Source: a virus. From it: DNA of 26,023 nucleotides. The notes below the pieces were generated by a model that was not told the DNA's origin, searched no databases, and saw only the letters and a program-made list of their open reading frames with translations. The stretch spans positions 1 through 26,023 of IMG/VR virus record IMGVR_UViG_3300031994_000473. One strand, given 5' to 3'. Below are positions 12,978 to 26,023 of the stretch, one piece after another (within the stretch, counting starts at the first letter, position 1; the number at the start of each line of letters is the position of its first letter). Both the position numbers and the translations under genes were made by a program.

Positions 12978-13616
12978 TTAAATTATTTCAATATAAGAGG
13001 AGGGCGAACCTAGACTAAAAACAGGTCCGGCTTTATCATAGCCAATTTTCTATCCTCCAGAAAGCATATCTGCAAGTATTGAAAAAACTCCCCCAAAAAC
13101 AGCTCCAAAAACACCCGCAAAAAAAGACTAAGCAAAAGTACCGTGACCCATCATTTCACTGGGGTCTTCAAAATCATTTACTAAAATGTCATGTAGTTCA
13201 TCTGCAGCCTCTTGATAAGCAGCGTCAAATTCCGCGGCGGTTTGATCCCAAGCTTGTTCAAGAGCAGGCCCAAAATAAGGTTGAGCCATCATTTTCCAAG
13301 TTCCATATTCAACATATTGAGCATATTCAGTGTCTGCATAGCAAGATATACTCCAATCATCTGCCGATGCAGAAATTGATGAATATAAACGACCAGTGTT
13401 TATAGGCACTAAGTTAGTTGCCGCTTGGTAAAAAGCATCAGCAAATTCCGCAAAAGCGTCACTGTAATCCACTTCTACTGTAACTGTTACTTGTTCATCA
13501 TTTATAAGAGTATTATTTTCGCCGTTTGCATCTGAATCTACTGGCATCAGTGCTGTCCCAGTGACTTCAGTTTGTAAACCTAAATCATCTCCGCTTATAT
13601 ATGCATATAATGCCAT
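12978..13616 (-). CDS. HK97 gp10-like tail/neck component with a TAG-gated hydrophobic C-terminal extension, 212 aa
   Basis: Track ORF 13128..13616 contains NTGRLYSSI...YAQYVEYGTWKMMAQPYFGPALEQAW, the HK97-gp10 family motif. TAG at 13128 and 13050 leads to TAA at 12978-12980, which lies immediately before the next RBS. Confidence 0.65.
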
Positions 13617-13807
13617 TATTCTTCCTCAATATCTTCTATATTTACTTCTATATAATTATCTGGGGTATCCATACTCCCCATCCTGAGAGACGGGGAATAC
13701 AGATGAACCTCAGTAACAACATTATCTTCATTTAATGCGTAATGAGGTTTCTTAAAGTCTAATACCTTACCTTCATCCGCATATATAACTCTATCTCTTA
13801 TTACCAT
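13616..13807 (-). CDS. Small structural-module protein (63 aa), paralog of 13809..14027
   Basis: An internal ATG at 13805-13807 follows GGAGGG, one nt after the upstream TAA. TAA 13616-13618 overlaps the next ATG. It shares Y.ADEGKV.DF...E.HLYS..L..G..D..DNY.EV with its neighbour. Confidence 0.6.
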   Translation of the reverse strand: MVIRDRVIYADEGKVLDFKKPHYALNEDNVVTEVHLYSPSLRMGSMDTPDNYIEVNIEDIEEE

Positions 13808-13808
13808 A

Positions 13809-14027
13809 TTAACCCTCCTGCGTAGGAGCGTCAACTTCTACGTAATTATCGATGCTATCTGTGATGCCTAAGAACAATGTCTTAGAGTAAAGATGTTCTT
13901 GTACTGTTGTTTCTACTCCAGTTTCAGGATCTTTCTCAACAGTGACATGTGTTGATAAATCAGCCCAATCAAATACTTTACCTTCATCCGCATCGTATCT
14001 TTGCACTGTATATTCTTGTGTTTTCAT
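13809..14027 (-). CDS. Small structural-module protein (72 aa), paralog of 13616..13807
   Basis: Intact ORF with AAGAGG RBS and a TAA stop. It carries the paralogous motif RYDADEGKVFDW...EHLYSKTLFLGITDSIDNYVEV. Confidence 0.6.
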   Translation of the reverse strand: MKTQEYTVQRYDADEGKVFDWADLSTHVTVEKDPETGVETTVQEHLYSKTLFLGITDSIDNYVEVDAPTQEG

Positions 14028-14039
14028 GTTTTACCTCTT

Positions 14040-15254
14040 TTATGTTAACGATACTGTCCAACCCTTTGCAGTTGCTACTGCTATTTCTGCGGCAGTGAGG
14101 TCTGCTATTGCTCCTCCATCTGTTGCAGATCCTTTGTTAGTAGCATTTTCAAATGTAATAGTATTAGTACCACCTGCTGTTGCTATATATGCACTAGTAT
14201 CTGGGAGTGAATTAATAGTGTTTACCGCACTATCATGATTATATCTTGAATACTCAGGTAGAGTAGTAAACCACCAATCTTCATTTTTTAATGCTTCATA
14301 ACTTGCTGCATCGGTAACTTCTTTAGTAGTATCAAAATATGTATCCTTACTAAAACCAACAGGAGTAACACCATAATCAGCAAATACTTTAAAATTTTGA
14401 CTTTTATATTCTCTAACTACTGGAGCGTTATTTTCCATTAAAAAAGTTATATCTTTAATGCAATATAAATTAGCACCGGCTGTTCCAAACATATTTGCAG
14501 TTATAGGAGCTACTTGTTGACTTGAATAACCCCTATATAATGGAAGATTTAAACTTGTTAAACTATAATCTTGACCAAAACCTTGAGAAAAATTTAAAAG
14601 GCCATATTGAGATGAATTTGTTACAACAGACCACCAACTGAGATCAGGAATAGTTTTTAATTTATAACAATGTAAAAATGTCTGTTGTGGGGTTTGTTGA
14701 AATTTATTCTGTATCGCAAATAACACATCTGAATTATTTGTTAAAAAATCAAAAAAATTAGATGGAATAGACTATAAAGAACGACAATCATAAAAAGTTC
14801 CATTTGCAGTTAAATTAAACCCAGTCCGAAGATTTGGGTTATTATTTAAATTTAAAGTAATTATAGGTAATTTTTTTACATTACTAGTACGAAAAGAATA
14901 ATTTACCTGTACTGTAACAGATGAAGCATTAGCAGAAATAGTTAAAGGCAAAGTATAACTAGAAAGATCCTACAAACTTGTAGTCTAAGCAATATTACTT
15001 AAATTTGAATCTCCTGTAAAATTTATTTTATTCTTTAATAAATCTTTTAAAGCTATAAAAACTTTACTACCAAATAGATTTGATCCATCAAAGGGAAAAT
15101 TAATAGTAGGAATTTCTGCTCCACCACCGCCTTCAATAGCGGCAATAGCATCAGCCATATCACTAGGATAATAAGTAGTTTGTGTTCCATTTTGTTCTCT
15201 AATAGCATCGGCAATATCAGTAAGCGTGCTATCATTAATTAATACTACACTCAT
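14040..15254 (-). CDS. Fibre/receptor-binding candidate with BspA-type leucine-rich-repeat-like core, 404 aa, 3 in-frame TAG
   Basis: Track ORFs 14985..15254 and 14040..14726 are in one frame and are joined through TAG at 14985, 14970 and 14772. No TAA or TGA occurs in that frame. Motifs: N-terminal LTDIADAIREQNGT...MADAIAAI; Cys-containing repeats (CRSL(TAG)SIPSNFF, FLHCYKLKTIPDLS); C-terminal AAEIAVATAKGWTVSLT. Confidence 0.6.
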
Positions 15255-16921
15255 TAATATTGTACCTCCTCTGCATTAGTAAGATTAACAGAAATGACAC
15301 CATTAACAATGCTAATTCCAGTACCTGCGGTATAAGTAGCTCCTGCCCCATCCTGTCCATCTTGACCATCATATACATTAAAATCAGTATTACGAGAATC
15401 TCCTGTCCCATAACTAAATGCGACATTATGTCCTCCGGTTATCGAAGTTACTGTAACAATAGGTGTGATACCATCTTGTCCTGTTCCACCTCCGCCGCCA
15501 GTTGCGGAAATCACTCCATTAGTAATTTCAATACCAGTTCCCGCTGTATATGTCGTATGTTTAAATAAAGGAATTACTTTATTACTCCATGCGCTATATT
15601 GATTATTATAACCATTATACTAATAAATACGACCATATATATTATCAAGGTCCCGGAAAGAGTCACCAAGACCCAAGAAATAAATAAATAATCTTGTTCT
15701 ATTATTAGAATTTTCATTTGTTCCCCAGCATCTATCTGGGTCTAAATCAAAATACGCATATCTTATCGTTGTGTAGTTGGTCGTTATTGTAGTAGAGTTA
15801 GGCAAAGTCTCCCAAGAAAAAGCTGTGCTTCCATTATAGGAAGAACTAGTTGGAACTCCAACACTTGGGAGACATACATATCCATAAGTATTTACAGGTA
15901 TATTTTCCAATTTTGATGGGAAAAACATTCCAGTTTTAGGAATAGCATCTCTCAAATCAGTCTCTGAATAATCAAAATAAGTTAAATTATTAAAAATACC
16001 TGGTTTAATATCTCCACCTGTTCCATCTTGACCATCCATTACATCAAAATCAGTATTTCTTTGATCACCAGTACCATAATTAAATGCTATGTTGTGACCA
16101 CCAGTAATTGAAGTTACTGTTACTGTTGGAGTAATACCATCATCTCCATCGGTACCATTTGTACCATTTGTCCCTGCGGGACCTTGCTCTCCTTGAGGTC
16201 CAGTCGCACCTGTTGCACCATCTTGACCGTTTGTTAAATCAACTTCAGTAGTGCCAGCAATATCAGTTACCGCTAAATGATAACCATTACTTGTTTGTGT
16301 TACAACAACAGAGGGTGAAAAACCATTATTACCAGTATCTCCCTTTTCACCTTTTGGACCCTGAACACCTTGCGGGCCGGTCTAACCTGTATCTCCTTTT
16401 GGTCCCGTATCACCAGTATCCCCTTTTGGACCTTGAATACCTTGTGGACCTTGCTATCCTTGAGGACCAGTTTCACCCTGTGGTCCTTGTACCCCTTGAA
16501 TACCCTGAGGTCCTTGAGCTCCGGTTGCACCAGTGTCACCCTTATCTCCCTTGTCACCTTTATCTCCCTTAAGAGAAGCTTTCTGCTCAGGAGTTAAAGA
16601 TTCAAAAGTAACAGCACCATCTTCACCTTTTGGTCCTGCTTCACCGGGATCTCCTTTATCACCCTTATCACCTTTTGGTCCTTGAGGTCCAGTCTATCCT
16701 TGCGGTCCCCGCAATCCTTGGTTACCATCATCACCTTTTGGTCCTTTTAATGAAGCTAACCACTGTGCTTCAGTCCCGCTAAATCCGTTTTCAACAGCAA
16801 CTTCGTAAGCACTTAATCCATTGCCTACGACTCTAATAAACCCCAGTTCTTCGCTATTCTCTGCCTGGGTTGGGGTAATATTCTTTAACGAATAAAGAGT
16901 TGCGGTAATATCATTTGCCAT
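15254..16921 (-). CDS. Collagen-like (Gly-X-Y) fibre protein with an internally duplicated beta-module, 555 aa, 4 in-frame TAG
   Basis: Track ORFs 16694..16921, 15620..16039 and 15254..15514 share one frame. TAG at 16694, 16454, 16382 and 15620; TAA at 15254-15256. Long GXY runs are present (GPKGDKGDKGDPGEAGPKGEDG..., GATGAQGPQGIQGVQGPQGETGPQG...). Confidence 0.8.
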
Positions 16922-17874: not shown

Positions 17875-18786
17875 TTAAGGATTTGTAGTTCCGCCTTGAG
17901 TACCGCCACCTTCGGTACCTCCGCCTTGAGTTCCACCTTCGGTACCTCCGCCTTGAGTTCCACCTTCGGTACCTCCGCCTTGAGTTCCACCACCAGCAGC
18001 GGCAGCACCAGTTGTAATCTTAACAACCTTAGTAGCATCAGTAAGAGCAACGAGGGCTACTTTACGAGCAAATACTTTATTGTTACGGTAGTTGGCATCT
18101 CTTTCCTGTTCAATTTCAGAACCTTTCTTAATGAAAAGAGTAACTGCTTCAGCGTTAGCAAGGAATGCAGTATTTTCAGGAACTGCCTTAGAAACAATTA
18201 CAGGAACACCACATACTGTTCCAATGTAACCAGTTCTTACGAAATCTTCAACATATTTAAGGTCATCACCAAGAGCCTTTCTAACTTTGGCTTTGTCACC
18301 TGTGTTGATAAGAATGAAATAACCTGTTTCATCTTCAAGATCTAATTTAGCAATAGCATCAACAACAGCATCAAATGTAAGTCCTGTTGCGGAAGCGTCA
18401 TATGTAATAGTAGCCTTACCAAATTCCGCAATCGCTTTTCTTGTAAAGTCATTTGTCATGCGGGTTGCAAGTCCATAAAGACCAGCATCTACTACCATAG
18501 GATCTTTCATTTCTTGTTCATCGTAGTATTGGAATCTACCCTGAGTAACACCTACAACGTAGTCCACATCAGTGAAGCTAACTTCGATGTCATCTGTATT
18601 ACCTTCACCCATTTCAAGGTCTTCAACATCACCAGTAGAAGTGTAAGTATGAATAGTCTTAATCATACCTGCATTTTCTGTAAGTGAAGTATCTACTGTC
18701 ATATAAGATTGAAGATTAACATTAGTAGTAAGTAAATCTTCAAGTTTATTTTCTAATACAAAATTTTCATATACTTTATGAGCCAT
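17875..18786 (-). CDS. Major capsid protein (HK97-fold, N4-gp56-like family of Firmicute phages) with a Gly/Thr/Gln/Glu-rich repeat tail; no TAG
   Basis: Intact 303-aa ORF after the scaffold gene, with AAGGAG RBS and a TAA stop. Its position, size and sequence style (…GRFQYYDEQEMKDPMVVDAG…FIKKGSEIEQERDANYRNNKVFARKVALVAL) fit a major capsid protein. Confidence 0.75.
   Translation of the reverse strand: MAHKVYENFVLENKLEDLLTTNVNLQSYMTVDTSLTENAGMIKTIHTYTSTGDVEDLEMGEGNTDDIEVSFTDVDYVVGVTQGRFQYYDEQEMKDPMVVDAGLYGLATRMTNDFTRKAIAEFGKATITYDASATGLTFDAVVDAIAKLDLEDETGYFILINTGDKAKVRKALGDDLKYVEDFVRTGYIGTVCGVPVIVSKAVPENTAFLANAEAVTLFIKKGSEIEQERDANYRNNKVFARKVALVALTDATKVVKITTGAAAAGGGTQGGGTEGGTQGGGTEGGTQGGGTEGGGTQGGTTNP
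17891..17991. repeat. 27-bp tandem repeat (~3.6 copies) encoding GTEGGTQGG units at the capsid protein C-terminus
   Basis: ccgccttgagttccaccttcggtacct is repeated head to tail. The first copy carries a 3-nt insertion. The repeat forms a GC-rich island in an AT-rich genome. Confidence 0.9.
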
Positions 18787-18805
18787 AATTATAATCTCCT
18801 TCTAT

Positions 18806-19375
18806 TCATCGAGTTGTCATCTGTTTATACAACTCTGGATTTGTTCTATATAATTCGGCTTGCTGTGATACTGTAAGTTTTGCGAACTGTTCTTTAGTCA
18901 TGCCAGTTTGCGATACTGAACTTCCCTTTGGAGCGGGAGTCGCTAACCTAGAATTTACAGCATCCGCAAGCGCAGCCTTCCATGCCTTCTCAAAATTGTT
19001 AATGTTTTCCATCATACTTTCGGCATCGTCGGTCACAATGTAATCTACAAATTGTACTGGCAGCCCTCTATCCGCAAGAACCTTTGATGCACTTAACTTA
19101 TTCTGTGTAAGTGCAAACTCTCTTTCTTTTGCTTCGAGTTCTGCAACTCTTTTTTGAAATTCATATTCTTTCTTTTGAGCTTCATCCATATCACGCAATT
19201 TCTCAGCTTCTGCGCGTTCATTTTCAAATTTCTGTTTCTGTTTCTTAAGTGCGGATGTCACTCTCCTATCAGCTTCCTGTTGCAGAAGTTTATCAACTTC
19301 TTCTTGTGTATAGGTCTTAACCTCTTGAACTGTTTCCTCTGCCCCAGTCTCAACTGTTGTTTTATTTTCTTCCAT
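18806..19375 (-). CDS. Capsid scaffolding protein (DUF4355-like), 189 aa; no TAG
   Basis: Intact ORF directly upstream of the capsid gene. It is charged and coiled-coil rich (EEVDKLLQQEADRRVTSALKKQKQKFENERAEAEKLRDMDEAQKKEYEFQKRVAELEAKEREF), with a TGA stop. Confidence 0.7.
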   Translation of the reverse strand: MEENKTTVETGAEETVQEVKTYTQEEVDKLLQQEADRRVTSALKKQKQKFENERAEAEKLRDMDEAQKKEYEFQKRVAELEAKEREFALTQNKLSASKVLADRGLPVQFVDYIVTDDAESMMENINNFEKAWKAALADAVNSRLATPAPKGSSVSQTGMTKEQFAKLTVSQQAELYRTNPELYKQMTTR

Positions 19376-20095: not shown

Positions 20096-20953
20096 TCAGT
20101 TTTCCTTTTCAAACTAGTCATATGCACAAAAGGAACAAGCACAATTAGGATGATATGGAGGTAAATCAACTCCAACATCAGCTTCTGCAAGCGGGATAGC
20201 CTATCCTACATAATCTAAGCAAATCCCTCCGCATTCCGCATCACCAATTATTTCCACATATTTAACACCACTCTATAAATAGGTATCTTTAGTGGCTTTG
20301 CTATAAATTGCCATTGTTTCGGTTCTAATAAGCCGTCTAGCTTGATATGCAGCAAATCCTGTTAGCTTTTGAAGTTCTTCAGTCATTTTATCTAATGACC
20401 AACCATTGTGAATTCCCTACAACAGAACAGAGCGAAGCTTAGAATCAAGAGTATCAACAATGTAGTTTGATCTATCTTTAAATGTTTTCTTGTCTTCACA
20501 CCATGGCTCTAATACTTTCTTCTTAATATCAATAGGAAGAATGAAATTCTTATTACCAACGGATTGCGCGGTCGCCGCTGCCGTCATCTAATAATCTAGA
20601 ATTAACCATGCCATTAATCTGTTGTTCTGTAATTCTTTTAAGTCACGCCGCATTTGCCTAAGGGTCTATTCCATCTAGGTAATATGCCCTCCCCGCATCA
20701 ATGAATGTGCAAGCGCTTGGTATCGTTTCATATCAATCGATCCCCGCTTAAAATAAAACGGGAACTCGTCTTTATACAATTTTTCTAATTTGATTAAGAC
20801 CTATTTATAGTCTTTAACTATATCGTTTTCAACTTCTTTAGCATCCGCTAACAACTAAAGAACTAAATCAAGCTCGTCTTGATAACTCTACTGATTATTG
20901 TAATCACTCTTCTTCTTTATTATCTTTTTCTTCTTCTTCTTCTCTTGACTCAT
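20096..20953 (-). CDS. Head morphogenesis protein, SPP1 gp7 / Mu F-like, 285 aa, 10 in-frame TAG
   Basis: ATG 20951-20953 lies inside the portal 3' end. TAG at 20888, 20855, 20801, 20675, 20666, 20588, 20417, 20273, 20201 and 20114; TGA at 20096-20098. I scanned the frame and found no TAA or TGA. The C-terminal IIGDAECGGICLDYVG(TAG)AIPLAEADVGVDLPPYHPNCACSF matches the family motif. Confidence 0.75.
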
Positions 20954-22277
20954 CCTAATCCTCTCCATTTAATCCCAATCTTACGTCATAGAAAGGATTA
21001 GCTTCTTGCTCTTTATCGAGTCTTTGAATTTCAGCTTCAACATCTTCAACAAAAGGAAGTTGAGCAAGTAAAGTCTCACGAGATACTTTACCAGATAATG
21101 TACTAACCATATTTGCAATTTCGGTATCATTTGAAGGAAGATTACGAGTAAATGTAATATCAATAGCTCGCCAATCAAACGCACTACCTTTTAATGCGGC
21201 GATGTTAAATATTAATTCAATCCTTCTCTGCAATCCACGTTTAAATTTACGCTCTTTAATTGCAACGACGTTTTCCATTGGTAATGTTTTATATTTAATT
21301 GCTACTCCTGAAGCATTTCCGCTAAACGCAGTATCGCTCATATCAGGAGTTTTAGAGAACTTATGAATATCTCTATCTAATCTATTCTTAACATTCTCTA
21401 TTGTTGTATCTGACCCTTGCTTAGTAAGCCATTTGGCATCAGAGTTTTCATCTAATAAAATGATACGATTCTCTTTCATAGCGGCGACATCGTCTTTATC
21501 CGCATTGAGACCAGATAAACAAAGATATGCATCTACAAAATAATCAAAGTCATCAAGAGAATCAGATTCCATCTTATCATAAGCGTCAATTAACGAAAGG
21601 ACTGGTTCAAAATCTCCAATCTCTTCTTCGTTATTTTCAAATACTACAATAGGAACAGAACCAAAATAATGCGGCGCCTCCGCTTCAAAGGTCAGAGTAC
21701 TCAAGTTCGCATCACTCTTATAATGCATCACTTTTGTATCTGAATAAACCTAAACTCTATAATACACTTCTTCAGATTCGATATCTTCACATTCAAAATA
21801 GCGGATGCCGTATAAAAGATCTTCATTAAGAGTATCGTCATATACAAGTACAATCTCTCGTGGATCCAATCTCTTTAGCCGCGTCTGCGCATCTTCATCT
21901 AAATAAACTAATTCAACAGCAAGACCAAAAATACTCATGTCTTTAGCTAACTCAATATTTTCATCTTGCTAATCAGTGTACTATAAAATCATTTTTAATT
22001 CATCCGCTGCTTCTTCAATTTCAGAAGAATAAGAAACACCCTAACCCATAAAATAACCTGTTAGAGTATCTGTAATGTAGCTTGCATACGGATGTGCAAT
22101 ATTATTACATGGAAGAGTCTCATCTGTTTTCATTCTTTGTAAAATAGGATTCTTCGCATGATAATAATTATCTAATTTATTAAGTCTAGCGATATCTCTC
22201 ATCCTATGTTTATCAATTAATTTCTTAATGATTTCAACAGTAAGAGGAGTCTATCTGCTTATCTTATACTGAGGCAT
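20904..22277 (-). CDS. Portal protein, SPP1 gp6 family, 457 aa, 6 in-frame TAG
   Basis: ATG 22275-22277 follows AAGGAGG. TAG at 22251, 22041, 21981, 21969, 21750 and 20955; TGA at 20904-20906. Motifs: KLIDKHRMRDIARLNKLDNYYHAKNPIL..., NNIAHPYASYITDTLTGYFMG(TAG)GVSY, and an acidic C-terminal tail. Confidence 0.85.
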
Positions 22278-22707
22278 CTTTGTCCTCCTTATCATTATAA
22301 ATCTCTCGTAATTCCTACATTAAATTATCAATATAACTATTACCGCCTTCATTCTTATAATGTTTATAGCGGCGTTCCAATAAATCCATTTGCATACTAT
22401 CTAATATACTTGGATCTTTTTTACATTGTTTATACAACATTACAATCCAGCTTTTTATACCATCTAGATCGCTGACTAAAAGTGAATCAAGCTTTTCGGT
22501 AATCTACTGTAATTGATCTTTTAGTCCCTTAACTTCCTACACAAGCCAGGTTAATAATTCTTTTTCATCTCGTACTTTATCAACCTGTTGAACAGTTTTA
22601 TTTTTAAAGAAGTCATACACTTCATAAAACTATTTACATGCTACTCCAAACATAAATAAAAATACAATAGTAAACTACAATGAATATTTTGAAAAGAACT
22701 AGACCAT
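22264..22707 (-). CDS. Membrane-anchored coiled-coil protein (holin-like candidate?), 147 aa, 6 in-frame TAG including codon 3
   Basis: ATG 22705-22707 follows AAGGAGG. TAG at 22699, 22675, 22630, 22537, 22504 and 22315; TAA at 22264-22266. It has a hydrophobic N-terminal segment FTIVFLFMFGVAC followed by heptad-like charged sequence. Confidence 0.55.
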
Positions 22708-22716
22708 ATTTCCTCC

Positions 22717-23961
22717 TTATAGTCCTAATGCCCCTTTTGACATTGTTTGTAACTTTTTGCGGTAAGTACCACATTGTGTGCCGTATCTAGCTGCATCTAT
22801 CAAGTGACAAAATGCGTCAATGGGTTTATCGGTCCAATTATCAAACTTATCTTTATCAAAAGCATAATTAGAAAATTCTATAATCGCATTTTCACAAGAG
22901 GGATGAATCAATATCTCATACTCTTGAAGCTTGCGGATACCCTACATAATAGAGCCTTTGCCTTTCTTTGCGGGCTTCACTCTTAATATATCTAATTTAC
23001 CTAGTTCCGCAATTGAGCGTGGCTAAGCGCTGTCCGCATAAATTAAACACTTTTGATACCCACGATACTTAATCCATGCCGCCACCTATTCAAGAGTCTT
23101 CTGTGACTGATAAAACTAATCACAAAAATATATTCTTTTGTTCTCTTCATCTACTCGCATTACCGCAATAGCAGTAGGATCTTGCCAACCAAAGTCTAAT
23201 CCTATCCAAAGCGGAAAGTCAAGCTTCTTCACATCATATTGCTCAACCCGCCAGTTATCAAATACTAATCCCTATGATACTCCCCATTCCCCATCACCTT
23301 CGATGCGGAAACGTCTAGGATATTTAACTTTCATATCTTCAAAGACTTTAATATCATCCTCACCTAACCACTCGTTGCAGCGGTAGGTCGTGGTCATCGC
23401 TAATTTATTCTAGTCATTTGGCGTATCAAAGAAACGTTTTTTAAGCCAAATTTTATCACTCCAAGGGTTAAATGTAAATATTATTTGTTTAAAATAACCA
23501 GGAGGAAGCTAGCCCCTCAACGATAAGTCAATTTTATTAAAGTCTTCCTATGATGTTATTTGATAAGCCTATTCAATCCAACAGAGATTCAAATAACCAA
23601 CAGGAGCAGTAATAGAAGTAATTGAAAGTGGATTATCACATCCTCTAAAATAAATCTTTTGTCCAGTAGGCTAGTAAGTAGCTTCGAGCGGAGACACCGT
23701 GAATTTCCACAAATGACCCACTCCCAAGTTCTAAGCAGCCCACTTTAATTGTTTCCAGGTTGAATCTCGCTGCGTATTAAAGACTTGCCGCACCACCAAA
23801 CAATTGGATAGCGGATATTGCATCATTAAAAAAATAATCTTCATTGCGGCGGTCGTCGATTTCTTACTTCCACGAGATCCTTTCACCAATAGATAACGAC
23901 CCTTAAAGTTCCAAAATGCGTTATAGCCTTTACCTATCTTTTCACTTAGTCTAATTTCCAT
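22717..23961 (-). CDS. terL: Terminase large subunit, PBSX/Terminase_3-like, 414 aa, 11 in-frame TAG
   Basis: ATG 23959-23961 follows GGAGGA. The whole gene was translated by hand. TAG at 23731, 23671, 23569, 23548, 23509, 23410, 23272, 23116, 23086, 23023 and 22942; TAA at 22717-22719. Motifs: VKGSRGSKKST (Walker A-like), YFRGCDNP, LCWIE(TAG)A (Walker B), FTFNP, ADSA(TAG)PRSIAEL, KKGKGSIM(TAG)GI, HLIDAARYG. Confidence 0.9.
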
Positions 23962-24385: not shown

Positions 24386-24435
24386 AGTAAAACCTCCTTT
24401 CATATAAATATGAAAATTTCTTCAATAAAATTATA

Positions 24436-24612
24436 TTACTTTGTCTCAACAATAGAAAAAGGAACAGAGGCGGGCGGTGGGTCAGTGAAATTTATGCGGT
24501 TCCCGCGTGTCTCGTTTGTAGATACATGCATTTTATGTAAGATTTCTCTAGCTTCATTTTCTATTGTTTCTGTTTTCCAAAGCTCATCTTCAAAGTAGTT
24601 TGTATCCTGCAT
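24436..24612 (-). CDS. Hypothetical 58-aa protein (below the ORF-track threshold)
   Basis: ATG 24610-24612 with a weak GGGA RBS; TAA at 24436-24438. Translation: MQDTNYFEDELWKTETIENEAREILHKMHVSTNETRGNRINFTDPPPASVPFSIVETK. It fills an otherwise non-coding gap upstream of terS. Confidence 0.35.
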   Translation of the reverse strand: MQDTNYFEDELWKTETIENEAREILHKMHVSTNETRGNRINFTDPPPASVPFSIVETK

Positions 24613-24641
24613 ATCCCTAATCCTATTTTCTTTTGTTGCAA

Positions 24642-24723
24642 GGGTTTGGGGGCGAAGCCCACAAATCCCGCGCAGATTATATAGTATTTCAATGCGTGCC
24701 CGAAGGGCTAAGCTTTGAAATAC
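24642..24723. other. Two GC-rich imperfect hairpins, each with a GAA/UUC triloop
   Basis: In 24642-24669, gggtttgggggc-gaa-gcccacaaatccc forms about 12 bp with one bulge and one mismatch. In 24684-24723, the outer stem gtatttcaa/ttgaaatac encloses gccc-gaa-gggc. There is no flanking U/T tract. Confidence 0.6.
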
Positions 24724-24740
24724 GTTATTTTATATATTGT

Positions 24741-24829
24741 ATTATTATATTATGTGAGTTATTTTTTGCTCACTTGTGAGAAATTTTTTACGCACATGTG
24801 AGAAAAATTTTGCTCACATGTGAGAAATT
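24741..24829. repeat. Iteron/operator array: three full CTCAC(A/T)TGTGAG palindromes at ~22-bp spacing plus two flanking half-sites, separated by A3T6-like spacers
   Basis: tatgTGAGttatttttt GCTCACTTGTGAGaaatttttta CGCACATGTGAGaaaaatttt GCTCACATGTGAGaaatttttt GCTCAC. The array starts 18 nt after the stop of the wHTH gene 24848..25213. An AT-only block at 24711-24742 lies next to it. Confidence 0.85.
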
Positions 24830-24847
24830 TTTTGCTCACCCAATCTT

Positions 24848-25213
24848 TCAATCTTGAGTTTTCACAACGTTTACCGCAATACTTTCTGTTACAGGTGGAT
24901 TATCATAAAAGTCCCAAACTTCACTATCTGCCCTTTTAATTAAAAAACCATTATCAATTAGTTCCTTAATGGCACTAGTGTATGTTCTACGACTAATCCC
25001 CAACTCCGCAGTAACATCATTACTTGTCAAAAGAAAATGATAATTATTTGCATTTGCGGTTACAAATAAATAAATTTTAAGGGCGGAAGGTGTTAAAGTT
25101 TTCATAGCTATTCTTTCACCCTGTTGACTTCTAATTGAAAGTAAGTTATCTTTACTTCCTTTCTCTTGTGTTTTTACTGTTGTCTGGTATGCACCAGTTT
25201 GTCTTCCTGCCAT
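24848..25213 (-). CDS. Winged-helix DNA-binding protein, possible replication initiator/organiser, 121 aa; no TAG
   Basis: Intact ORF with AAGGAG RBS and a TGA stop. The wHTH-like segment is LTSNDVTAELGISRRTYTSAIKELIDNGFLIKR. The gene is adjacent to the iteron array. Confidence 0.6.
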   Translation of the reverse strand: MAGRQTGAYQTTVKTQEKGSKDNLLSIRSQQGERIAMKTLTPSALKIYLFVTANANNYHFLLTSNDVTAELGISRRTYTSAIKELIDNGFLIKRADSEVWDFYDNPPVTESIAVNVVKTQD

Positions 25214-25266
25214 AGCAATACTCCTTATCTCTTTTCTACAATAACTTTAATAATAATATCGTGTTC

Positions 25267-25464
25267 CTATTCAAATCTATCTAAATACTCGTCAAGTGCC
25301 GTCCAATATTTCTCAGGAAGATTGCGGTCACCCGCAAGTACATGATAGAGGAAGTCTGGATTGATATTTATTGCCTTCGCAACATCTTTATATTTTAACC
25401 CAGAAGTTGTTTTATTTGTTTTTAATCTTAAAACAAAATTTTGAGTTTCCCCATTTATATACAT
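25267..25464 (-). CDS. Cro/XRE-like helix-turn-helix regulator, 65 aa; ends at TAG
   Basis: Intact ORF with GGAAGGA RBS. The HTH-like segment is LKYKDVAKAININPDFLYHVLAG. The stop is TAG at 25267-25269, and the next in-frame stop is TAA at 25225-25227. Confidence 0.65.
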   Translation of the reverse strand: MYINGETQNFVLRLKTNKTTSGLKYKDVAKAININPDFLYHVLAGDRNLPEKYWTALDEYLDRFE

Positions 25465-25486
25465 ATATCAAAATTCCTTCCTATTG

Positions 25487-25516
25487 TTTATAAAAATCTG
25501 ACCAAAAATTCTACAA
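25487..25516 (-). promoter_or_regulatory. Weak candidate promoter (TTGTAG-18-TATAAA) just upstream of the Cro-like gene
   Basis: On the minus strand, -35 lies at 25511-25516 and -10 at 25487-25492. The match to consensus is poor. Confidence 0.25.
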
Positions 25517-25519
25517 AAA

Positions 25520-25550
25520 TAGGGAAAAGGGTGACGTTCCCTCTTCCCTA
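25520..25550. promoter_or_regulatory. Inverted repeat TAGGGAA-N17-TTCCCTA with an inner AGGG/CCCT pair; operator or RNA hairpin candidate
   Basis: Read directly from the sequence. It abuts the weak -35 element upstream of the Cro-like gene. Confidence 0.4.
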
Positions 25551-25766
25551 TTGGAGTGAAAGTTAATTGTAGAAAATTTTGGAGGACGCCAAAACTTTCA
25601 GTGACTTATGAGTAAAAAAGTGGTATTAAAAATAAAAATATAATAATTATAAAATATTACCAATAAGGTAAATAAAAGGAAATGGAGTGAAAGAAAAAAG
25701 TCTTTAAATAATATAGGAACCCAAATGAAAAAAATTATTACATACTACTTTTTTCTTTCTATATAT

Positions 25767-25795
25767 ATTATACCAAAAATTTTTTCATTAGTCAA
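25767..25795 (-). promoter_or_regulatory. Near-consensus sigma70/sigmaA promoter: TTGACT-17 nt-TATAAT with extended -10 (TGG)
   Basis: The minus strand reads aaaaTTTGACTaatgaaaaaattttTGGTATAATatat. It begins 5 nt after the wHTH TAA and points toward the Cro-like gene. Confidence 0.6.
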
Positions 25796-25800
25796 ATTTT

Positions 25801-26013
25801 TTACTGAATATAGGAAAGACCTTTTTCATTTAAGACTAAACTTGACGGAGTAACAGATTTATCTCTTTCCCCTAGACCTGCGCCCGCAATAGCGGCAGAA
25901 AAACAAGAATCGACTCTTCTTTTTTCCATATCAAGAGCAAGCGCAACTTCTTTAGCGGTTGCTCCATTATGTTCTTTAAGATAATTCAAAATGCCGTAAC
26001 TTATATCAGTCAT
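25801..26013 (-). CDS. Small winged-helix DNA-binding protein, 70 aa; no TAG
   Basis: Intact ORF with a TAA stop. The wHTH-like segment is ILNYLKEHNGATAKEVALALDMEKRRVDSCF. From the copy at 1..126, it lies immediately downstream of Tal. Confidence 0.65.
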   Translation of the reverse strand: MTDISYGILNYLKEHNGATAKEVALALDMEKRRVDSCFSAAIAGAGLGERDKSVTPSSLVLNEKGLSYIQ

Positions 26014-26023
26014 AATAATTTTA
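25899..26023. repeat. Terminal direct repeat, copy B
   Basis: Identical to 12..136. Confidence 0.9.

Follow-up and report, generated by a model that had tools for sequence, protein, structure and literature searches.

Stop-codon recoding in phages is itself known. Among phages whose code differs from that of their host, only the change of TAG to glutamine (code 15) and that of TGA to tryptophan have been described, and suppressor tRNAs are found in about 40% of the TAG-recoded ones (Borges et al., 10.1101/2021.08.26.457843). Insertion of glutamine at TAG has been confirmed by proteomics for crAss-like phages, and in Lak phages the residue aligned with TAG is glutamine in 75-85% of cases. Isotype prediction for 180 phage tRNA-Sup genes returned Gln, Trp, Ile and Tyr but never Glu. 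The Topaz clade comprises TAG-recoded phages and prophages of Oscillospiraceae with genomes of 22 ± 3 kb (Borges et al., 10.1101/2021.08.26.457843).

Glutamate at UAG is on record in eukaryotes. Peritrich ciliates (NCBI table 30) read UAR as glutamate, and UAG/UAR is glutamate in the trypanosomatid Blastocrithidia nonstop (PMC12153298). Laboratory amber suppressors include the E. coli supE tRNA-Gln with a CUA anticodon and engineered tRNA-Glu(CUA). In the literature that we searched, which did not cover all journals, there is no report of TAG read as glutamate in a phage or a bacterium.

Here we analyze the IMG/VR virus record IMGVR_UViG_3300031994_000473, a stretch of 26,023 nucleotides that we call the window. 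What is new in it is a phage recoding of TAG that very likely yields glutamate, with no decoder encoded in cis. As in code-15 phages (crAss-like, Lak and the gemstone clades), TAG is an in-frame sense codon in an AT-rich gut or rumen phage that has standard-code sister lineages. It differs from them in the inferred amino acid, which is Glu and not Gln (Gln stands at 5% of the aligned TAG positions, against the Lak values above), in the absence of both a tRNA-Sup and RF2, and in the presence of TAG in early genes together with its avoidance in the capsid and scaffold genes.

Results

A complete phage genome that uses TAG as a sense codon

The window has a G+C content of about 33%, carries every gene on the minus strand and shows a monotonic GC skew. 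Its first 136 bases recur at its end with 134/136 identities, from which we infer that it holds one complete genome unit of 25,887 bp, terminally redundant or circular. In support of completeness, a standard-code relative (the P0003 phage) is represented by 24,549-bp contigs from two samples that differ in rotation; other family members lie on contigs of 23.1-26.7 kb. With TAG read as sense, minus-strand ORFs tile the whole window and have the lengths of their homologues (Table 1). The gene order is terS, terL, a 147-aa gene, portal, MuF, HNH endonuclease, scaffold and major capsid, then connector and tail genes, the collagen-like protein, the giant protein, Dit and Tal. Beyond Tal lie about 1.6 kb of small genes: wHTH, HTH, a Rep-like gene beside iteron-like repeats, and a 58-aa ORF. 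The window encodes no release factor, no aminoacyl-tRNA synthetase and no DNA-modification enzyme, and no exact match to its capsid protein is on record in public assemblies. The gap at 25520-25750 was considered as a site of a conserved non-coding RNA, a candidate that we rejected since even the closest recoded relatives show no conservation of the gap.

Table 1 Positions of the features discussed in the text, numbered along the window
Feature	Positions	Strand	Remarks
Terminal direct repeat	1-136	no strand	matches 25888-26023
Giant ORF, 3294 aa	1562-11446	-	18 TAG; orthologues of 3120-3240 aa in standard-code relatives
Collagen-like tail or fibre protein	15254-16921	-	3 TAG within Gly-X-Y repeats
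Major capsid gene	17875-18786	-	zero TAG and zero GAG (codon counts)
Scaffold gene	18806-19375	-	zero TAG (codon counts)
MuF-like head morphogenesis protein	20096-20968	-	10 TAG; profile match and relatives' codons
Portal protein (SPP1_portal)	20904-22295	-	6 TAG; profile match
terL (large terminase), 414 aa	22717-23961	-	11 in-frame TAG; ATG 23961, TAA 22719-22717
terL TAG, aa 77	23731-23733	-	
terL TAG, aa 97	23671-23673	-	
terL TAG, aa 131	23569-23571	-	LCWIE-TAG-A, Walker-B catalytic glutamate; E in 120/120 homologues
terL TAG, aa 138	23548-23550	-	ITS-TAG-EDF, invariant Glu column; E in 120/120
terL TAG, aa 151	23509-23511	-	
terL TAG, aa 184	23410-23412	-	
terL TAG, aa 230	23272-23274	-	
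terL TAG, aa 282	23116-23118	-	YFCD-TAG-FY; E in 117/120
terL TAG, aa 292	23086-23088	-	
terL TAG, aa 313	23023-23025	-	ADSA-TAG-PRSI, nuclease-domain motif; E in 120/120
terL TAG, aa 340	22942-22944	-	
Sole non-structural region	24422-26023	-	small wHTH/HTH genes, no tRNA (gene and tRNA scans)
Iteron-like repeats	~24755-24840		inside 24422-26023
Rep-like gene, 121 aa	24848-25213	-	inside 24422-26023
Early small gene, 79 aa	25225-25464	-	sense TAG at 25267-25269

The 20 late genes comprise 7841 codons, among which there are 92 in-frame TAG and not a single TAA or TGA; one further TAG lies in an early gene, for a total of about 93. The 23 genes end with TAA (15) or TGA (8). Many in-frame TAG codons in intact genes of homologue length, with neither TAA nor TGA in frame, are the mark of a stop-recoded phage, and it is met here: TAG is read as sense in this phage. 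TAG is used in early genes as well. One of these, of 79 aa, reads ..LDRFE-TAG-EHDIIIKVIVEKR, and its orthologue in the recoded relative L083 reads ..LDRFE-D-EHNITIKVVVEK; because the similarity continues beyond the TAG, we take this codon too as sense. The wHTH gene of L174, another recoded relative, has TAG where the window has Glu, and the Rep-like gene of L001 and L174 holds two TAGs.

Within the late genes TAG makes up 92 of the 592 Glu-type codons. It is commonest in terL and absent from the genes with the highest expression, those of the capsid and scaffold, both in the window and in the recoded relatives L083, L001, L163 and L174. This avoidance, shared by GAG in the capsid gene, is as expected if TAG is a minor codon read by a scarce tRNA. 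The nucleotides at +4 and -1 of TAG are indistinguishable from those around GAR codons; a stop-context bias at +4, sought as a sign of competition by RF1, was not seen. A full-length product of the giant gene would need near-complete read-through at all of its TAGs.

It could be argued that the TAGs are not translated at all, the phage being decaying or defective, or the codons being sequencing or base-modification artefacts of GAG. This possibility is all but excluded. Nothing specific favors it, and it arises only from the lack of a tRNA. Against it stand the absence of in-frame TAA and TGA beside so many TAGs, the recoding of at least 10 related genomes with a recoded terL cluster of 267 sequences (see below), and the lack of any DNA-modification enzyme in the genome.

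Four TAG codons of the large terminase occupy conserved glutamate positions

The terL product matches Pfam Terminase_3 (3e-48, 164 bits; cut-off 23.2) and Terminase_3C (1e-22, 81 bits; cut-off 26.7). With ATPase and nuclease domains both above the curated cut-offs, it qualifies as a terminase of the Terminase_3 or PBSX type, and its frame contains no TAA or TGA. The search for relatives gave 7526 homologues at E<=1e-10 among 8000 candidates scored. The best 120, all full-length and 57-83% identical, were aligned. Among cultured relatives, prophages of Streptococcus equinus, Bacillus and Staphylococcus come nearest (46-49% identity).

Comparison by phmmer with sequences of the PDB places four of the TAGs opposite glutamates of terminases of known structure. 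The segment CWIE-X-A of the window aligns with CWVE-E-A of Sf6 gp2 (E119), ADSA-X-PRSI with ADSS-E-PRSI and CD-X-FY with ID-E-LV of SPP1 G2P, and VS-X-GL with LA-E-GI of D6E. In Sf6 the Walker B motif with its catalytic glutamate is ICWVE-E119 (PMC6379665, Table 1). The equivalent substitution in lambda, E179Q, is lethal and leaves 0.2-0.7% of the wild-type ATPase activity (PMC6379665). At the codon level the aa 131 column is GAA or GAG in 82/82 loci. A Walker A motif of the form GxxxxGK[ST] was sought and is present as KGSRGSKKS; a Walker B motif with a catalytic Glu is present only if TAG encodes Glu.

The preliminary description, made from the sequence alone, had counted about 93 TAGs in the genome, had located the motifs LCWIE-TAG-A and ADSA-TAG-PRSIAEL and two portal TAGs (22041-22043 and 21750-21752), and had proposed that TAG stands for Glu rather than Gln. 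The count held, the coordinates proved exact and the portal codons are present. Its assignments of aa 131 to the Walker-B catalytic Glu, of aa 313 to the Glu of a DSAEP motif and of YFCD-TAG-FY to a Glu column also held, on the Sf6, SPP1 and homologue alignments, respectively. For its claim that the corresponding Glu of T4 gp17 tolerates no substitution, the lambda and Sf6 data serve here in place of direct evidence. An alignment of GSIM-TAG-GI with Gln held in part only: it is seen in distant homologues, and 7/7 close standard-code relatives have Glu. That TAG = Glu is known only in ciliates did not hold, in view of Blastocrithidia nonstop.

The few exceptions at aa 282 are the homologues P0001, P0002 and P0033. 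The first two come from TAG-recoded genomes translated under another code, and the Q of P0001 at this column is a TAG codon; the codon in P0033 was not examined. Setting aside P0001 and P0002, the remaining 118 homologues define 136 columns with at least 95% conservation. The window carries the conserved residue in all of them except for 4 TAGs. All 4 fall on the 8 conserved-Glu columns, and none on the 5 conserved-Gln columns. The chance of 4/4 TAGs on Glu columns is about (8/136)^4, roughly 1e-5.

These columns bear on a rival reading, in which TAG is glutamine (code 15) and the alignments with Glu reflect tolerated Glu-to-Gln changes that arose through mutation of GAG to TAG. In its favor, all earlier reports on TAG-recoded phages give Gln, Gln is what public gene callers already use for this clade, and it is the majority residue of relatives at 4/86 TAG sites. 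Against it, code 15 would place Gln at the Walker-B catalytic carboxylate, the substitution that is lethal in lambda, and at three further Glu columns conserved in 117-120 of 120 homologues.

Sister recoded genomes and a database artefact

P0001, the closest terL protein in the databases (83% identity), has Q opposite five TAGs of the window. Its contig, L001, yields no match to P0001 under table 11; the gene has 9 in-frame TAGs that the source had translated as Gln. These 9 codons align with E, E, TAG, E, E, E, TAG, TAG and E of the window. A database Q at such columns is thus an artefact of gene calling under code 15, and the later tallies were made at the codon level, on DNA. Under this code the public databases place Gln at catalytic Glu positions in this clade.

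For these tallies 160 terL-bearing loci were fetched from IMG/VR and metagenomes, together with contigs of the closest relatives. They include a recoded group (L083/L003/L177, L084, L001/L002/L163 and L174-L176, and later L213-L216) and a standard-code group (the P0003 and P0005 phages, L171, L172, L173, L004, L005 and L085), and both belong to one family. The giant gene is present in the standard-code P0003 phage, L172 and L173 as well.

TAG interchanges with GAA and GAG among the sister recoded genomes. When the 38 TAGs of L001 are compared with the window, E is found at 18, TAG at 8 and Q at 1. The clade has 182 distinct TAG columns in total. In the 88 of these with TAG in relatives only, the window has E at 36 and Q at 6, and no other residue at more than 5. 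Over all TAG columns, the recoded relatives have TAG 273 times, GAA 211, GAG 73, CAA 42 and GAT 40. At least 10 related genomes, obtained from various samples and with various assemblers, share the recoding; some TAG positions are common to them and many are specific to a lineage. Recoded terL forms one cluster at 90% identity with 267 member sequences; several members lie on 25-26-kb contigs and one on 30 contigs. No integrase was found in the recoded clade with the integrase of the relative L168 as query. The 33.4-kb contig that carries P0123 probably holds more than one genome unit.

Genome-wide identity of the TAG residue

Every ORF of the window was compared with the relatives by tblastn, and the alignments were mapped back to the codons of the subject DNA. 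At 86 TAG sites, eight close standard-code relatives have E at a frequency of.50, D.08, K.06, A.05 and Q.05. The true Glu codons of the window give E.50, D.09, Q.06 and K.05 in the same alignments, and the true Gln codons give Q.36, K.12 and E.09. Glu is conserved at TAG sites to the degree seen at real Glu codons, and variable columns are not enriched among them. Log-likelihoods were also computed site by site, each site having a single vote, for the 51 sites covered by at least three sequences; they come to +40.0 for E, -30.1 for D, -36.5 for A, -37.6 for K and -43.9 for Q. The difference LL(E)-LL(Q) is +83.8 nats; resampled true-Glu sites range from 37 to 96, and true-Gln sites from -99 to -51. 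The preliminary description had named a Codetta-type tally of consensus residues as the check on its proposal; this tally clearly favors Glu and rejects Gln.

Composition and local context point the same way. The sum of E and TAG in the window compares with the E of relatives as 453 vs 445, 299 vs 282 and 338 vs 333. The Q of the window alone is near that of relatives in most comparisons (145 vs 147, 152 vs 147) and lower in a few (187 vs 233, 55 vs 79); Q and TAG together would exceed the Gln content of relatives by 30-50%. In the portal, close relatives read DEEEEEL, DEEEEEI, EEEEEEK and DEEEEEE at 4/6 TAG sites. The collagen-like protein has 3 TAGs in its Gly-X-Y repeats, every one at X; Glu occurs at X 5 times and never at Y, and Gln is at Y 16 times and at X twice.

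With these data the glutamine reading becomes very unlikely. Beyond the terminase columns, it fails to account for TAG sites that match the conservation of Glu codons and not that of variable columns, it lies 84 nats below Glu in likelihood, and it requires the excess of Gln just described. TAG columns that are mainly Gln, as code 15 demands, are not what is observed (E 50%, Q 5%). Reading of UAG as Glu, the trait shared with the UAR = Glu codes (NCBI tables 30 and 31), is met by comparative inference, without peptides. We conclude that TAG is very likely glutamate and not glutamine in this phage, on the strength of comparative sequence statistics only and with no peptide evidence.

Assignment of TAG to yet another residue (Asp, Lys or pyrrolysine) is also very unlikely. 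Asp is the second commonest residue at TAG sites (8-10%), and archaea that encode pyrrolysine live in the rumen. Against these readings, the log-likelihoods are -30 for D and -38 for K compared with +40 for E, the invariant catalytic Glu columns speak against all three residues, and both terL and the ribosome-binding sites are of the Bacillota type.

A minority of TAG sites do align with Gln or other residues, such as terL aa 292 and MuF aa 184, and the terS segment KDD-TAG-YYTP of L001 has Q in L164 and L176. This minority matches the level expected for real Glu codons, though some insertion of Gln is still not excluded. A related alternative is that TAG is ambiguous and yields a mixture of Glu and Gln, either because a Glu-tRNA(CUA) is partly amidated by GatCAB in a host without GlnRS or because two suppressors compete. 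The nearest cultured relatives infect Bacilli, in which Gln-tRNA is made through Glu-tRNA and GatCAB, and a minor Gln fraction cannot be excluded by sequence statistics. We nevertheless consider such a mixture unlikely: Gln is no commoner at TAG columns (5%) than at true Glu codons (6%), TAG occurs on none of the conserved-Gln columns, and at the catalytic sites a mixture would give dead subunits in a multimeric motor.

Search for the decoder

The phage genome encodes no tRNA in cis. ARAGORN in default mode finds none in the window, and what its relaxed (ps80, ps60), mitochondrial and intron modes return, if anything, is noise within coding regions. The only match to Rfam at E<=1 on the window is a chance one to a miRNA, with none to a tRNA. 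A CUA anticodon stem-loop (5-bp stem, NU-CUA-NN loop) has two matches in the window, both in genes, and none in non-coding DNA. Ten recoded relatives, of which parts of 2.5-17.6 kb each were fetched, likewise yielded no tRNA in these parts. The phage-encoded suppressor tRNA(CUA) that is a trait of code 15 is therefore not met in the complete genome of the window or in the fetched parts of its relatives, and there is no tRNA-CUA whose identity elements, which the preliminary description had wished to determine, could be inspected. Since the genome is complete, lacks a tRNA and has TAG also in early genes, the decoder must pre-exist in the infected cell.

Outside the phage, a tRNA-Glu-derived suppressor was sought in IMG/VR with the anticodon-arm pattern CCGCC-YUCUAAN-GGCGG and was rejected, with no ARAGORN tRNA at any match. 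The first anticodon-arm pattern matched short GC-rich inverted repeats; with the second, two matches lie inside tRNA-Leu(tag) genes of the opposite strand and the other five have no tRNA call. A DNA pattern of the TAG-containing terL has no match in the representative genomes of GTDB. A family-level terL pattern has 6 matches there, in Myxococcales, Haliangiales and Bacteroidetes MAGs; these are probably chance matches, although the presence of terL at them was not examined. The terL and the ribosome-binding sites of the phage itself are of the Bacillota type.

Discussion

We propose that TAG is a minor synonym of GAA and GAG, with TAA and TGA as the only stops, in this phage and in its sister clade of siphophage-like phages, whose genomes measure about 23-26 kb and probably stem from rumen or gut samples. 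The putative decoder would be a CUA-anticodon tRNA to which the host GluRS attaches Glu; no such tRNA was found, and its nature is an inference. Its gene may lie on the host chromosome, or a co-resident element or helper may carry it; the tRNA would be supplied in trans and be present before or at the start of infection. Bacilli lack GlnRS and make Gln-tRNA through GluRS and then GatCAB. If GatCAB failed to act on a CUA tRNA in a host of this type, that tRNA would insert Glu; this is a lead and not a result.

The likeness to peritrich ciliates and Blastocrithidia nonstop is that UAG is glutamate. In those codes UAA is Glu as well, a trait of NCBI tables 30 and 31 that the window does not meet: here TAA is the main stop, at 15/23 genes, and never occurs in frame. 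They are, moreover, codes of nuclear genomes with their own tRNA-Glu(UUA/CUA) genes. Laboratory suppressors indicate that insertion of Gln or Glu at UAG by a CUA tRNA is biochemically feasible, but their action is partial and competes with RF1, whereas near-complete read-through is needed here, with 18 TAGs in the 3294-aa ORF. Phages that mirror the code of their host, those of code 4 (Mycoplasma/Spiroplasma) and code 25 (Absconditabacteria), likewise have no decoder of their own and use the recoded codon in all gene classes. They differ in that no bacterial host with TAG = Glu is known, and the host of this phage is unidentified.

A bolder reading is that the host itself reads TAG as Glu, with a code independent of RF1, in uncultivated rumen or gut Bacillota. 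It is supported by the lack of a tRNA in the genome and in the fetched parts of ten relatives, by TAG in early and Rep-like genes, and by the 18 TAGs of a single ORF with no stop-context bias at TAG. Against it, no bacterium is known to read TAG as Glu, and a 2021 Codetta screen of 250,000 genomes reportedly found none; the representative genomes of GTDB yielded no member of the phage family; in the Topaz precedent the host of the prophage uses the standard code (Borges et al.); and the capsid and scaffold genes do without TAG. On balance we lean against this reading. If true, it would be the first natural stop-to-sense reassignment of TAG to a standard amino acid in bacteria.

The Topaz phages resemble this phage in their small genomes of nearly all structural genes, TAG recoding, a Bacillota-type host, the animal gut and a monotonic GC skew. 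The window differs in having no integrase, and Topaz is assigned code 15 (Gln). Membership in the same clade is possible, but it rests on size, habitat and recoding alone, without a terminase phylogeny. Should the two belong together, the Gln assignment of Topaz would need revising, and a pre-existing decoder in a standard-code host would be harder to picture.

A phage clade with TAG as glutamate, if this assignment is right, adds a natural code variant to the prokaryotic world. Automatic translation under code 15 then mis-assigns about 1.2% of the residues in these phages, catalytic glutamates included; this bears on the prediction of function and structure, and the database entries P0001 and P0002 already carry the error. 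It also follows from the glutamate reading that a decoder of amber codons which inserts Glu awaits discovery in gut or rumen Bacillota, be it a tRNA-CUA with GluRS or a host with a new code. Such a decoder is relevant to how the code evolved, and synthetic biology could draw natural orthogonal pairs from it. The glutamate reading further sharpens the question of how translation proceeds in the approximately 60% of recoded phages that lack a suppressor tRNA.

The stop codons of the relatives give a hint as to how the change could have come about. TAG ends 0/30 genes in the nearest standard-code relative and 16/76 in more distant ones, counts that fit a loss of TAG stops before codon capture.

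TAG usage and its distribution among genes

The use of TAG as a sense codon is uneven across the genome. The major capsid and scaffold genes (17875-19375, minus strand) contain no TAG at all, and the same holds for the other recoded genomes examined (L083, L001, L163 and L174); the capsid gene lacks GAG as well. TAG-rich genes are found elsewhere, with TAG accounting for 36-38% of Glu-type codons in terL, MuF, the 147-aa gene and the 181-aa gene. Such a difference between capsid/scaffold and genes such as terL and MuF suggests that selection at the level of translation disfavours TAG as a minor codon that is decoded poorly. The long stop-to-stop ORF with three TAGs at 13616-14023 (minus strand) is probably not coding throughout, and therefore a few of the counted TAGs probably fall outside real genes. 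The same interval holds a tandem pair of small paralogous genes, with the stretches YADEGKVLDFKKPHYALNEDNV and YDADEGKVFDWADLSTHVTVE.

Stop codons were compared with those of relatives that use the standard code. TAG terminates none of 30 genes in the closest of these, the P0003 phage (L165 and L166); it provides 16 of 76 stops in more distant ones (loci compared: L168, L171, L172 and L173). TGA serves as the stop in 8 of 23 cases in the window versus 9 of 106 in the relatives.

The recoded clade is stored in public protein collections under TAG = Gln (L001 5463-6713; the terL homologues P0001 and P0002; cluster members P0121-P0139). A single cluster of such Gln-translated terL proteins, at 90% identity, has 267 members. 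The Gln seen at or beside the Walker-B acidic pair of the stored terL proteins is there because the clade was translated in this way.

Genome organization

The termini of the window form a direct repeat (1-136 and 25888-26023, 134 of 136 positions identical), which shows that the window is a complete genome of 25,887 bp. Its gene content is nearly all structural; small regulatory or Rep-like genes occupy only ~1.6 kb, and no polymerase, primase or integrase is present in the complete genome. The iteron-like repeats and the winged-helix-like gene beside them likely constitute a minimal replication origin and its initiator.

Features of the phage genome outside the terL region
Feature	Position	Strand	Remarks
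Giant ORF, 3294 aa	1562-11446	-	38% of genome; position expected for tape-measure gene
Iteron-like repeats, 4 copies of TTTCTCACA(T/A)GTGAGCAAAA	~24755-24840		directly downstream of 121-aa gene
Rep-like gene, 121 aa, winged-helix-like	24848-25213	-	adjoins iteron-like repeats

The giant ORF contains beta-rich repetitive modules, and one orthologue gave a faint match to SH3_3. It is kept across the phage family at 2984-3240 aa, in recoded and standard-code members alike.

A standard-code sister lineage

The P0142/P0006 phage (loci L217-L226) represents a standard-code sister lineage with 75% identity in terL. Its genome is circular, measures 18.7 kb, encodes a tyrosine integrase and lacks the giant gene. 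Contigs of near-equal length come from many samples, whose source is probably pig gut.

A hairpin motif in unrelated viral contigs

The search for tRNA-Glu-like anticodon arms also met, in unrelated viral contigs, a conserved motif of ~90 nt around the hairpin GCGCCGCCCTCTAAGGGCGGTGGGT (L187-L190 and L200; IMG/VR samples 3300021400, 3300021387, 3300021431 and 3300021254). ARAGORN made no tRNA call for this motif. Some contigs carry two copies, ~1.9 kb apart.
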